Source: Candidatus Omnitrophota bacterium
Lineage (GTDB): Bacteria > Omnitrophota > Gorgyraeia > Zapsychrales > Fredricksoniimonadaceae
Reading direction: 5' to 3'
DNA length: 64,000 nt
Assembly (NCBI GenBank): GCA_903908245.1
Contig: CAIVRE010000002.1
Span: 26,761 to 90,760 of the forward strand
Shown here piece after piece: positions 14,904 to 43,736 of the stretch. The notes under the pieces were generated by a model. The model saw only the letters and a list, made by a program, of their open reading frames with translations. It searched no databases and was not told the DNA's origin. Each line of letters opens with the position of its first letter. Position 1 is the stretch's first letter. The translations under genes and the position numbers were made by a program.

Positions 14904-14966
14904 GGGACACTTTACTTAATTCATCTAATACAAAAACGACATTGATGAATTAAGTAAAGTGTCCCC
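14904..14966. repeat. AT-rich perfect inverted repeat, family A/B copy 1
   Basis: GGGACACTTTACTTAATTCATC and GATGAATTAAGTAAAGTGTCCC are perfect complements. The unit sits between the Rrf2 stop and the metY ribosome-binding site. Confidence 0.8.
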
Positions 14967-14969
14967 ATA

Positions 14970-15407
14970 TTAAACTCCGAATGCCGCGTAACCGTTCTTT
15001 CTTTTCGCCCGCATTCGGACCGCCTTTTCGGCCATATCCGACAACTTATAGGATGAAAATACCCGCTCGATCGCAGCTGAAGCTTCTTTCCAGATGTCAC
15101 TTGTGATACATCCCTCTTTATCGCACCCCTGACAATCAACAAGCCCGATCTGTCCTTCAAGAACAGAAACAATGTCCTTGACCGTAATATCATTCGCTGG
15201 CTTTGCTAAGGTGAATCCCCCCTTGACACCGCGCTGAGCGTTGACCAACCCCGCCGCTTTAAGGGATGACGCCAGCTGCCACAGATACTTTTCCGAGATA
15301 TTCTGACTACGGGCAATATCCCCGAGAAGAATAAACCCCTCAGGTTGCCTTATCGCAAGCTCAAGCATAAGTCTTGTGCCGTAACGACTTTTCGTAGAAA
15401 GCTTCAT
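14970..15407 (-). CDS. Rrf2-family transcriptional regulator
   Basis: MKLSTKSRYGTRLMLELA... is a typical Rrf2 helix-turn-helix, and C-terminal Cys residues (CQGCDKEGC) are present. The start was chosen at the internal Met, so coordinates are trimmed from the 175-aa ORF. Confidence 0.75.
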   Translation of the reverse strand: MKLSTKSRYGTRLMLELAIRQPEGFILLGDIARSQNISEKYLWQLASSLKAAGLVNAQRGVKGGFTLAKPANDITVKDIVSVLEGQIGLVDCQGCDKEGCITSDIWKEASAAIERVFSSYKLSDMAEKAVRMRAKRKNGYAAFGV

Positions 15408-15514
15408 TTGAACCCCCAAAGTAATAAGTAAGTCTATCGGAACACTAGAGAATATAGCACACAAAAAAAGAATGTCAAGAAAAAAGATACGAACCAAATA
15501 TGTCTTTGAAGATA

Positions 15515-16120
15515 TCAGGAGGGCTTTAACGCCAGGATCGCCTGCATGATGCGCTGTGCGGCGATAGTTGAGTCAACATCGGAAGAAAAAACAAGAGGCT
15601 GGCCAAAGATAACTTTAACAGACGTACGTTTGGGGAATTTAGCACTTTTAGGTAAAACCTTATCCGTGCCTTCAATATATATAGGCACAACAGGGACGCC
15701 GGACTTGCCTGCCAGGAAACCAACCCCCGCCTGAGGCTTCTCGCCGCCACGGGTCCCCTGCGGAAAAACGAGCACCGGCCAACCGTCTTTAAGGCTCTGC
15801 AATACTTCCGTCAACGCACCGCGATCTGCCGAACCACGCTTAAGCGCAATACCCCCGCCAAAACGGATCAACGCGCCCAGGACAGGATGTTTAAATAACG
15901 AATCCTTGGCCAAAAACCTTATCCGGCGCGGTGAAACAACCGGCAAAAGGACAGGATCGATATTGCTTTCATGATTAGAGGCGTAAATACATCCGCCCGT
16001 CTTCGGGATATTCTCCCGGCCATAAGTGCGGCAGGGATAAAAACAAAAGCTGACAACAGCCGCGAGGCCCGTTGTCAGCCAATAGTAGACATACTTCAGA
16101 ACGTTCAACATATTGGGCAC
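15515..16120 (-). CDS. plsC: 1-acyl-sn-glycerol-3-phosphate acyltransferase family protein
   Basis: Carries the NHESNIDP acyltransferase motif and a FPQGTR-like block. Confidence 0.75.
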   Translation of the reverse strand: MPNMLNVLKYVYYWLTTGLAAVVSFCFYPCRTYGRENIPKTGGCIYASNHESNIDPVLLPVVSPRRIRFLAKDSLFKHPVLGALIRFGGGIALKRGSADRGALTEVLQSLKDGWPVLVFPQGTRGGEKPQAGVGFLAGKSGVPVVPIYIEGTDKVLPKSAKFPKRTSVKVIFGQPLVFSSDVDSTIAAQRIMQAILALKPS

Positions 16121-16147
16121 ATGAGTTATCGTCTATTTACCGGGCGA

Positions 16148-41306: not shown

Positions 41307-42581
41307 TTAACGGCGGCTGCGGGTGACCAGAAAATATGTCTGGCCGGCTGAACAGTCGATCTCGCCCAGGTCCTCCGCCCCGTTCACTGTCATATCCTCC
41401 GACAAATGCTCAAAACGCAAATGGTACTTGCCCGGATCAAGGCTCAGGCGCGCGACCCGTATTTCAGCCGGGAGAGCCTGCCAGCTGCGCAGATCCGCCC
41501 GCTCCGAATATATATTATATAAACTGCTCATCAGCCCGAAAAGCCCGGCCGCGGGCGACCCGAACTTCTTCTGGATATTCTCCTGCTGTTTGCGTTCCAC
41601 CAGATACTTGAGCGCCGGCCGGATGACAGCTTTGGCAAGAGCAGCCGCCTTGCGGGACTCCAGGTCTTTCATCGCCAGATCATCAATGCTCACCCCCAGC
41701 TCGGTGACTGCCTGCACTTTTACCCCGCCGGGCCCCTCCGCTGTCAGCAAACCGTTGCGCGTCGCGGAATACCGCCTGACGAACCTCGGGAAAGCCACCT
41801 GCGCTACCAACCCCCGTTCAAGAGGGACAGGGATGATCTGGGATTCCTTTACCGGAGAAAACCCGGCGGACTGCAGCACATAGACCACCGCTTTCGCATC
41901 AGCGCCGCCCCATCCATTGAGCGCCTTCAAACGGTCTTTAAGGACCTGGGGCTCATACATCCCGCCGTAATATTGCGAATACATCTCTTCGGCCTGCCGA
42001 TAAAAGATCCGGGCGTTATCACGGTCATCCGCCCTGGCCGAAGCCTCGTTCACAAACCCCATGAACATCCGGGCGAACCCGTTATCCTCAAAACGCCGGC
42101 GTTTGGCCGCCAGCGCCTGCCGTTCAACCACCTGGTATTTGGAATCCAGGTCACGCGCCTCCACCAGAGCCTCGTTCACATTGCCTGACGACAAATAATT
42201 CAGGGACTGGAACACATTGACCAGGACATATTCATAATCAGCCCCGCGATACGGCAGGGCATAATCATTCCCCATCCAGCTGACCGCTTCCTTGGAGAGT
42301 GACTGTGTATACAACTCCTCGAAACGGCGCTTGGCCTTGTCAAAACTTTGGATACTTTGCGGGTAAAGCCCGGCGTAATGCTCCACCAGGCCGCGGTCGA
42401 GATAATAGAGCAGGTAATTGCCCTGGCCATAGTCGGACGCTTCGGCCTCTATCTTCTCGGCGGCGCCCTTGATGTCCCCGGCCATTACACGGCGGTTGAT
42501 CTCGGGCTGAAGCGCCGGCCCGTTAAAGGCCGCGCAGGAAGAAACGAACAGCAGCAAAGGAAAGAAGAAACAACGGTTCAA
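41307..42581 (-). CDS. lipoprotein, function unknown
   Basis: Lipobox LFVSSC and 424 aa. It overlaps the downstream LpoB-like gene. Confidence 0.5.
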   Translation of the reverse strand: MNRCFFFPLLLFVSSCAAFNGPALQPEINRRVMAGDIKGAAEKIEAEASDYGQGNYLLYYLDRGLVEHYAGLYPQSIQSFDKAKRRFEELYTQSLSKEAVSWMGNDYALPYRGADYEYVLVNVFQSLNYLSSGNVNEALVEARDLDSKYQVVERQALAAKRRRFEDNGFARMFMGFVNEASARADDRDNARIFYRQAEEMYSQYYGGMYEPQVLKDRLKALNGWGGADAKAVVYVLQSAGFSPVKESQIIPVPLERGLVAQVAFPRFVRRYSATRNGLLTAEGPGGVKVQAVTELGVSIDDLAMKDLESRKAAALAKAVIRPALKYLVERKQQENIQKKFGSPAAGLFGLMSSLYNIYSERADLRSWQALPAEIRVARLSLDPGKYHLRFEHLSEDMTVNGAEDLGEIDCSAGQTYFLVTRSRR

Positions 42582-43174
42582 ATGGAATATTGCGGACGCT
42601 TGACCAGCTTCTTGATCTTCTTCTGGCCGATCCAGACTTTTTCATTGGTGGTCATATTGACCAGCTCCAGGTTGACCTGGAACAGGATCGCGTACTCGCC
42701 CTTAATCTCGTCTTTAACGGAATTGATCGACCCCTGAAGCATAAAATCCGCGCCCTTTTCCTGCACCATGGCCGCACGGGTCTCGGGTGCGGCATTCTGC
42801 AGCTGATCGACACGTTCGGCGCGCACTTCCCCGCGCTCCGAAGAAGCCGCCACGAACTTTACTTTACCGGCATTGACCAGCGCCTGCTCGAGGTCCTGGA
42901 CAAAAACCATCGCGTCAATATGCTCGTTGCTACGGTTGCTTACAGTCCCGACAATGACAACCGGATCACGCCCTTTTTCCTTGTTGAAATTGGAAAGCCA
43001 GGCGGTCTCCAGGCAGCCCTTGACCATTTCTTCCGCGGTCATACGCGCATCCGTATCATTCCACCGGCCCGAAAGATCGACCACCTCTTTTGGCTCCTTG
43101 CGGATGACCTCCGTCGCACAACCCGATAAGGCCAATCCCGCCAGGACCAGCGCCACCCAATATGCTTTTCTCAT
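42578..43174 (-). CDS. LpoB-like lipoprotein
   Basis: Lipobox LALSGC. The segment VVIVGTVSNRSNEHIDAMVFVQDLEQALVNAGKVKFV resembles the E. coli LpoB core (LLVDSVNNRTNGSLN...NNGKFTLV). Confidence 0.5.
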   Translation of the reverse strand: MRKAYWVALVLAGLALSGCATEVIRKEPKEVVDLSGRWNDTDARMTAEEMVKGCLETAWLSNFNKEKGRDPVVIVGTVSNRSNEHIDAMVFVQDLEQALVNAGKVKFVAASSERGEVRAERVDQLQNAAPETRAAMVQEKGADFMLQGSINSVKDEIKGEYAILFQVNLELVNMTTNEKVWIGQKKIKKLVKRPQYSI

Positions 43175-43178
43175 AAGA

Positions 43179-43655
43179 TCACTCCGTTACGATGATCCCG
43201 CTCTTGAAATCGGCGGTGATCGTTTCCAGCGCAGCCCTGGCCTCGTCTTCCGTGACATAAGACCCGGCACGCACCCGATACCATACCCCGCGCGCACCAA
43301 GGTCGCTGACCATGATATAAGCCTTATATCCTTTGGCCTTCAGTTTTTCCAGTGCCGATTCGGCGCGGGCCTTGTCTTTGAACGAATAGACCTGGACAGC
43401 AAAAGATTCTTTGGAGGAAAGGACCTGGGGCGCCATAACGACCGACGACGAAGGCTTAACGGCAGCAACCGCTGCCTGGTCGGCTTCGGTATGAGCAGGC
43501 TTGATCCCGGAAGGCTGCGCCTTTTCAGCCAACACATCCTGCACTGACGCCTTGACCGGCGACTTGTCTTTCGAAAAAGACATCACGCCGAACACCGCCG
43601 CCACCACCACCAAAAGAACGATGAGCCAAATTTCACTTCCTTTTCCACCAGCCAT
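43179..43655 (-). CDS. SPOR-domain protein
   Basis: Transmembrane anchor plus a C-terminal SPOR domain (FAVQVYSFKDKARAESALEKLKAKGYKAYI). The start was preferred at MAGGKG, which has GGAGG upstream; the longer ORF begins at 43667. Confidence 0.7.
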   Translation of the reverse strand: MAGGKGSEIWLIVLLVVVAAVFGVMSFSKDKSPVKASVQDVLAEKAQPSGIKPAHTEADQAAVAAVKPSSSVVMAPQVLSSKESFAVQVYSFKDKARAESALEKLKAKGYKAYIMVSDLGARGVWYRVRAGSYVTEDEARAALETITADFKSGIIVTE

Positions 43656-43674
43656 ATAAGCCTCCATAATTAGG

Positions 43675-43736
43675 GGGACACAATACTTAATTCATTAATT
43701 TATTTGATTATATAATGAATTAAGTATTGTGTCCCC
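43675..43736. repeat. AT-rich perfect inverted repeat, family A/B copy 2
   Basis: GGGGACACAATACTTAATTCATTA and TAATGAATTAAGTATTGTGTCCCC are perfect complements. The unit sits between the exonuclease stop and the SPOR gene ribosome-binding site. Confidence 0.8.

Follow-up and report, generated by a model that had tools for sequence, protein, structure and literature searches.

Two intergenic hairpins in an Omnitrophota genome are probably gene-less derivatives of TIRtrons

In a contig of Candidatus Omnitrophota bacterium (CAIVRE010000002.1 of assembly GCA_903908245.1, positions 26,761 to 90,760 of the forward strand), two AT-rich hairpins occupy short gaps between co-directional minus-strand genes. 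Copy A lies between an Rrf2-family regulator gene and metY, copy B between an exonuclease gene and the gene of a SPOR protein. The whole stretch of 64,000 nt which was analyzed is referred to as the window. Both hairpins sit just upstream of a ribosome-binding site (RBS), which raises the question whether they are regulators of metY and the SPOR gene or parts of an element which is independent of these genes. With a probability of about 85%, we consider them to be non-autonomous TIRtron derivatives, comparable to miniature inverted-repeat transposable elements (MITEs) or REPINs, which were inserted in this Omnitrophota lineage and are not metY/SPOR regulators. TIRtrons encode TIRYTs (terminal-inverted-repeat-associated tyrosine transposases) and have GGGGWSAS as a common motif of their terminal repeats (Di Nocera et al. 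2013, PMC3733652).

Copies A and B are real perfect hairpins and related copies of one family. An earlier note on this sequence had described perfect inverted repeats of 22-24 bp, and arms and loops were confirmed in both cases. Copy A (14904-14966, no strand assigned) is a palindromic element with two inverted terminal-repeat arms, 14904-14925 and 14944-14965, of 22 nt each, which are 100% complementary and enclose a loop of 18 nt (14926-14943); the fourth C/G of GGGGACAC is found at position 14966. The Rrf2-side arm continues outward into an 8-mer, TTAATATG (14966-14973, minus strand), which overlaps the Rrf2 stop codon (14970-14972) and also flanks the arm in another locus of the family (L080). 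The metY-side arm has no matching outer 8-mer. Copy B (43668-43742, likewise without strand) consists of the arms 43668-43697 and 43713-43742, complementary at 93% over 30 nt, with a perfect stem of 24 bp at the core (43674-43697 with 43713-43736), a 15-nt loop and the outer 8-mers TAATTAGG and GAAATATG. Both copies share the arm GGGACAC-NNN-ACTTAATTCAT. Copy A has TTT as its NNN triplet and copy B has AAT, and each triplet is mirrored in the opposite arm of the same copy, exactly as had been noted before. Exactly four occurrences of the shared arm GGGACACNNNACTTAATTCAT were counted in the window compared to 0.02 in shuffled sequences. A search of the window for further degenerate arms (≤ 5 of 18 mismatches) gave 7 extra hits versus 1-6 in shuffles, and none of them was convincing.

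On the minus (coding) strand, copy A begins 3 nt past the Rrf2 stop codon and stops 10 nt short of the metY Shine-Dalgarno sequence GGAG, and copy B begins 11 nt past the exonuclease stop codon and stops approximately 10 nt short of GGAGG of the SPOR gene; thus, the stems do close shortly before the downstream RBS, as stated in the earlier note. The RNA folds were predicted to have energies of -43 and -40.5 kcal/mol (z = -7.5 and -7.9). Single window arms as DNA fold at just 0 to -0.1 kcal/mol and, hence, the hairpin of paired arms is the sole stable structure available. At neither locus is the hairpin followed by a terminator-like T-tract, on either strand, which agrees with the previous view that they are not canonical intrinsic terminators. 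A search against Rfam, using the gathering threshold as well as permissive E-values, returned sub-threshold, microRNA-like hairpin noise and nothing else.

The best named homologues of MetY and the exonuclease assign the window to Candidatus Omnitrophota. Gene order is kept at both junctions in sister Omnitrophota genomes, so that the orthologous sites could be compared. The gap between Rrf2 and metY comprises 85 nt including the hairpin in the window (and in L120), and the hairpin is absent from the gaps of 37 nt in L126 (GCA_015232565.1, MetY 96% identical) and 24 nt in L127 and L128 (MetY 87% identical). Between exonuclease and SPOR gene, the window has a gap of 80 nt with the hairpin. The corresponding gaps in L130, L131 and L132 are 72-100 nt long, have no hairpin and carry TTGAGC-17-TATAAT over the exonuclease stop codon. 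Across about 130 kb of sister-genome sequence, no arm was found. Since the same junctions are empty in the sisters, both copies are lineage-specific insertions and not conserved regulators; the presence/absence polymorphism at orthologous sites, which characterizes mobile elements, was observed for both copies. At copy A, comparison with the empty sites revealed no visible direct target-site duplication, the hallmark of classical (DDE-derived) MITEs. Its absence fits Y1 enzymes of the IS200/IS605 type. Copy A is identical in five metagenome assemblies of the source population and, therefore, microdiversity is uninformative.

The exonuclease-SPOR junction of the sisters can be aligned to the window only for the RBS-proximal 20 nt approximately, from which it follows that copy B replaced about 45 nt, a promoter-like site included. 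In the sisters, this site reads TTGAG[CT]-17-TA[TG]AAT with the -35 box over the exonuclease stop codon (L130, 10790-10870; L131, 10790-10900; L132, 6250-6330), and the window lineage lost its -10 part at the arrival of copy B. In its place, arm and loop of copy B contain GGGACA-17-TATAAT (43707-43735, minus strand), a promoter-like site directed at the SPOR gene, which is a consensus match alone (10 of 12 positions). The possibility that the loop of copy B is the captured ancestral -10 region was rejected; TATAATC is shared with L130, and seven bases are too few.

To see how far the arm is distributed, an exact-pattern scan was conducted with one genome per species (596 Gb), in which an exact match was demanded at 18 fixed positions. 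The arm pattern was present in at least 119 loci, compared to ~17 chance matches expected according to our arithmetic for 18 fixed bases in 596 Gb. Among the explanations offered in the earlier note, the evidence as a whole is in favour of the REP-like family. The matches listed are from metagenome-assembled genomes (MAGs) and their hosts cover about 15 or more bacterial phyla: Omnitrophota (about 15 loci), Desulfobacterota/Deltaproteobacteria, Planctomycetota, Actinomycetes, Thermoleophilia, Dehalococcoidia, Anaerolineales, Alpha-, Gamma- and Zetaproteobacteria, Elusimicrobia, Nitrospinota, Aminicenantes, Eubacteriales, Thermotogae, Hydrogenedentes, Ozemobacteraceae and one Nealsonbacteria genome (candidate phyla radiation). 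An inverted partner at a distance of ≤ 150 nt was found for 66 of the 131 arms among the matches listed, giving window-like hairpins. In a sequence logo of 129 arms, the conserved unit reaches 8 nt further out, with the consensus G-A-A/G-T-T-C/A-N-G before GGGACAC, and conservation ends immediately past ACTTAATTCAT. The full terminal repeat of about 30 nt is, accordingly, an GAATTCCG-like 8-mer followed by GGGGACAC-NNN-ACTTAATTC.

Membership of the window hairpins in this family is established by the shared arm. The loops of the family hairpins range from 2 to 151 nt and are unrelated between genomes, yet shared within a genome. Whole hairpins including their loops recur inside single genomes (L005 twice, L082/L097, L070/L103), which demonstrates that they are copied as units. 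Concerning their gene context, 23 hairpins were found in co-directional, 10 in convergent and 7 in divergent gaps, 8 inside long open reading frames (ORFs), and 18 were unclear; this tally is based on crude ORF calling and gives a rough indication. The distance from hairpin to downstream start codon varies between about -9 and 367 nt across the family, and no consistent tie to RBSs is seen. In the family logo, the outer 8-mer is partly complementary to CTTAATTC. The arm was, therefore, considered as a self-folding, REP-like stem-loop of these two segments, which was rejected for the window by DNA folding: the GAATTAAG variant of other genomes reaches -4.5 kcal/mol, and self-folding is unsupported for the common GAATTCCG variant and the window arms.

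Some arrangements of the arm differ from simple hairpins. Stuttered, truncated repeats of the outer 8-mer and the arm start are found beside many hairpins, often symmetrically on both sides (L015, L019, L030, L053, L060, L061, L062, L078, L092, L099, L112 and L114; for instance, GAATTAAGGGGACAC|GAATTAAGGGGACACAAT... in L078). These flanks suggest nested insertions into existing copies or, alternatively, one-ended or abortive events. The Actinomycetes MAG SKS1.bin55 (L001, L023, L056, L057, L107, L119) has direct tandem arm arrays with a period of ~28-33 nt which are not inverted, one of them upstream of a TIRYT gene (L057). Conserved inserts are enclosed by arm pairs in delta-proteobacterial MAGs (145-151 nt; L009, L013, L037) and in Dehalococcoidia (72-74 nt; L018, L063, L073, L091, L110, L118). 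Both kinds of insert are found repeatedly, in one genome as well as in related ones, and might represent cargo or a segment with a structure of its own.

The enzyme which might act on such arms is encoded next to some of them. At 15 loci among the matches listed (at least 119), a protein of 218-236 aa is encoded, which has the N-terminus MARIARVV..PHHVTQRGN, the motifs NH[VI]H and Y[IV]ELNP and a match to Pfam Y1_Tnp (“Transposase IS200 like”) with an E-value of about 1e-13. The same motifs are listed for TnpA-Y1 subclass 2.1, whose members are 238 aa long in the median and are extended at the C-terminus by a helix-turn-helix-like segment (Quentin et al. 2018, PMC6006769). Subclass 2.1 (PMC6006769) and RAYT group 1 (Bertels et al. 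2017, PMC5581495) correspond to the TIRYTs. In 8 of 10 loci found with the pattern, inverted arms bracket the transposase gene; the left arm is positioned 32-180 nt upstream, often with TTGACA directly after it, and the right arm reaches into the stop codon or borders on it.

Because discovery of loci by means of the arm is biased, TIRYT genes were also collected by protein similarity. Metagenome contigs were searched with an alignment of nine transposases, and for the arms ≤ 4 mismatches in 16 fixed positions were allowed. A plus-strand arm was present ≤ 260 nt upstream of 53 of the 78 genes, the commonest distance to the ATG being 54 nt (13 cases; the core of the left arm starts there in 13 of 37 pairs). 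At the stop codon, 42 of 73 genes had a minus-strand arm. Both sides carried an arm in 35 of 71 genes, whereas chance arm matches are estimated by us at ~0.01 per locus. Linkage of arm and TIRYT gene in a fixed geometry is thereby established. Many of these TIRtrons are highly compact (L006, L055, L057, L102, L104, L111, L114 and many of L133-L212): their TIRYT genes have the stop codon within or flush against the right arm, e.g. ...TGAATTAAGT..., and TTGACA often abuts the left arm.

The mirrored arm changes had been taken to imply selection for a hairpin or cruciform. Covariation between the arms is a property of the whole family. Exact mirroring of NNN is observed in 57 of 71 distinct family hairpins versus 15.9 expected (maximum of 27 in 2000 re-pairings), and positions of the outer 8-mer are mirrored in 414 of 568 cases versus 290 expected. 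The same is found for arms separated by a transposase gene of ~700 nt, where NNN is mirrored in 30 of 37 pairs versus 6.8 expected and other substitutions are mirrored too (GGGACAG with CTGTCCC, GTGACAC with GTGTCAC). Since mirroring persists with arms ~700 nt apart, it is not evidence for a selected compact RNA hairpin at metY or SPOR and does not bear out the former interpretation. Matching ends are a family-wide property of the element. They could be caused by pairing of the ends in single-stranded DNA, by co-recognition through one protein or by derivation of one end from the other. Mirrored triplet and stuttered flanks together could also indicate that one end is regenerated from the other, or one-ended or nested single-strand transposition events; to our knowledge, no REP/RAYT system has been described in which ends are regenerated or such events take place.

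The kind of element is already known, namely the terminal repeats of TIRtrons with their TIRYTs, which are relatives of REPINs and RAYTs. Three of the four window arms carry GGGGACAC, in accordance with GGGGWSAS, and the metY-side arm of copy A reads AGGGACAC. As GGGGACAC fits GGGGWSAS and the arms bracket TIRYT genes, the window hairpins are explained as gene-less dimers of TIRtron ends. Further similarities to TIRtron repeats are the position of GGGGACAC at the arm start, the bracketing of a ~220-aa Y1 transposase with subclass 2.1 motifs, solo repeats as intergenic inverted dimers and clusters, and a moderate to low copy number; the window differs in having gene-less dimers alone. Within the host, two dimers were found in 64 kb, and no degenerate extras. 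Some TIR (terminal inverted repeat) families were described as moderately abundant, with many repeats arranged as dimers or clusters (PMC3733652), and for subclass 2.1 no REP-like sequences were found as partner (Quentin et al. 2018, PMC6006769). In the searchable text of the TIRYT papers, an 8-nt motif is given and the full ~30-nt arm, the fixed offsets and the recurrence across phyla are not stated. A literature text search for the arm gave no match with 14-mers, and two 11-mers matched unrelated papers. Full arm, fixed offsets, gene-less hairpin derivatives and phylum range may, hence, be under-described in the literature.

With REP/REPIN and RAYT (TnpA-REP) systems, the family shares short palindromic extragenic repeats, inverted doublets, a single-copy Y1 transposase gene flanked by repeats, lack of target duplication and possible effects on mRNA when transcribed. 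In contrast to canonical REPs and REPINs, GT[AG]G is missing and the window arms start with GGGG, preceded by ATAT or TTAG; single window arms are not imperfect palindromes and do not fold; the linked protein belongs to another subclass, below the cut-off of REP_Tyr_transpos; and the copy number is far below the hundreds typical of REPINs. IS200/IS605 elements (IS608 TnpA) have the Y1 HUH core (Pfam Y1_Tnp) in common with the family, and action on single-stranded DNA hairpins without target duplication is expected for both. However, IS200/IS605 ends are differing subterminal hairpins and not long terminal inverted repeats, and their TnpA has ~150 aa and no C-terminal extension. The Correia elements of Neisseria and the enterobacterial ERIC/IRU sequences are palindromic miniature insertions between co-transcribed genes, like the window hairpins, and their long stems can lead to RNase III cleavage or new promoters as side effects. 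They derive from DDE-type transposons and make target duplications, and their sequences are unrelated to the arm family.

A mechanism can be proposed on this basis. A TIRtron is a compact arrangement of a Y1 (HUH) transposase gene of the TIRYT type between two inverted terminal repeats of ~30 nt, and in the window copies two such repeats stand back to back around a loop of 15-18 nt with no gene between them. Both copies presumably entered the Omnitrophota lineage after its split from the sequenced relatives; copy A would have landed directly behind the Rrf2 stop codon, and copy B would have taken over most of the exonuclease-SPOR spacer. Judging by the established biochemistry of other Y1 HUH enzymes (IS608 TnpA and E. 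coli TnpA-REP), the ends would be recognized in trans by a TIRYT, which would cut and rejoin the element on single-stranded DNA with the arms paired. The mirrored NNN may reflect either that two matching ends are required or how they arose. If transcribed, the stems of 22-24 bp in the Rrf2-metY and exonuclease-SPOR transcripts could be RNase III targets or barriers to exonucleases, and copy B might supply a promoter (GGGACA-17-TATAAT). Such effects on mRNA or promoters would be by-products of the insertion and not the reason for the sequence.

Several points weigh against this origin of the hairpins. No TIRYT gene was detected in the 64-kb window by tblastn, and a resident mobilizing enzyme would be putative. 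The best NCBIfam model for the arm-linked protein, REP_Tyr_transpos, scores 69-73 bits and, thus, below its cut-off of 80. Biochemical work on any TIRYT was not found, for which reason the single-strand mechanism is taken over from IS608 TnpA and TnpA-REP. The window contains just two copies whose loops and NNN differ, so that they do not demonstrate recent transposition within the genome, and copy B took the place of about 45 nt and is no clean insertion. Finally, uniformity of the arm is overstated by the demand for an exact match at 18 positions; gene-proximal arms often have 1-4 mismatches. A more far-reaching proposal is that hairpins of the form GGGGACAC-N3-ACTTAATTC are the missing non-autonomous partner of subclass 2.1 (TIRYT). 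They would then form one miniature-element family with ends of ~30 nt near-identical across about 15 or more phyla, Omnitrophota and candidate-phyla-radiation bacteria among them, against a divergence of the TIRYT transposases to 41-70% identity. We regard this proposal as tentative and rather doubtful.

The reading most natural at first sight is that of gene-specific cis-regulatory RNA hairpins, selected before the RBS of metY and the SPOR gene as RNase III sites, 5’ stabilizers or for translational control. Both hairpins are indeed on the sense strand ~10 nt before the Shine-Dalgarno sequence, the predicted RNA stems are highly stable, a stem length of 22-24 bp suffices for RNase III, and arm and loop of copy B form a 10/12 promoter-like site where the relatives have a promoter. 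This explanation is nevertheless improbable: in all sister genomes examined the hairpins are missing from the same junctions, the arm occurs in about 15 or more phyla beside unrelated genes in all gap types with widely varying start distances, arms flank transposase genes and are mirrored even when 700 nt apart, and Rfam gives no match. The gene-specific or RBS-linked structure suggested in the earlier note is, therefore, not upheld, and a secondary co-option of the hairpins as regulators is possible.

Far less probable still are operators for a dimeric DNA-binding regulator on two half-sites, such as the adjacent Rrf2-family protein. Rrf2 regulators bind AT-rich palindromes and copy A has an Rrf2 gene and metY as its neighbours, but copy B is located at an unrelated locus, the site is missing from relatives in which Rrf2 and metY are paired likewise, and the family adjoins many unrelated genes. 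Moreover, half-sites of ~22-30 nt at a spacing of 2 to 151 nt do not fit the fixed footprint of a dimer. Palindromes arising by chance or locally, e.g. by replication slippage, and without family relationship can practically be dismissed, even though the intergenic DNA is AT-rich here and short palindromes are common; they are refuted by four exact 18/18 arm matches versus 0.02 expected and by identical arms in more than 100 loci elsewhere.

As TIRtron derivatives, the window hairpins should be annotated as mobile-element relics and not as a conserved regulatory motif of genes for methionine or cell division. The data provide evidence that arm pairs with no gene between them are inserted into new sites, and their host range is very wide; they can overwrite a promoter (copy B) or put a stem of about -40 kcal/mol inside an operon (copy A). 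A 22-24-bp stem is now located inside an Rrf2-metY operon which is tight in relatives, and consequences for the host are speculative. TIRYTs, or subclass 2.1, are the second-largest class of IS200-like proteins, and we know of no function assigned to them. The data define a precise DNA substrate for these proteins with respect to arm sequence, offset and orientation, which can be used in binding and cleavage assays.

A remnant third copy had been placed at 35553-35565, based on a 13-mer of the arm whose recurrence was thought unlikely by chance. The 13-mer ACTTTACTTAATT is in fact found at 35543-35555, 10 nt off, without the GGGACAC head and with 6 of 18 mismatches to the arm core. It spans the spacer and the -10 box of TTGACA-17-TAAAGT (35543-35571, minus strand; 10 of 12 matches), a conserved σ70-like promoter upstream of the MshEN/pilB operon which does not belong to the element. 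Of 300 local-composition shuffles, 30 contain a 13-mer in common with either element. In addition, three sister genomes which do not have the hairpin element carry the block TAAGTAAAGTA in invariant form upstream of MshEN. Since TAAGTAAAGTA is kept in these hairpin-free sisters, the site of the 13-mer is a conserved promoter with a chance likeness to the AT-rich arm; an element remnant was rejected because of coordinates, shuffles and conservation.

Further structures in the window concern other genes. RNase P RNA (bacterial class A) and four tRNA genes (59163-59529, 60712-60887 and 9028-9346, all on the minus strand) are ordinary. A perfect GC-rich palindrome of 16 nt (CCCTACCGGAGAGGGT / ACCCTCTCCGGTAGGG; 12355-12389) just past the DUF3034 gene is terminator-like, with no clean T-tract. 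On the minus strand, a perfect 17-bp hairpin (46089-46123) just upstream of the start of a pfkB-family kinase gene (46082) pairs the anti-Shine-Dalgarno sequence CCTCC with AAGGAGG of this downstream gene. In L130, L131 and L132, the hairpin is kept at the same place upstream of pfkB while the stem sequences differ (covariation). Judged from the sequences, this suggests conserved translational control or an RNA thermometer.

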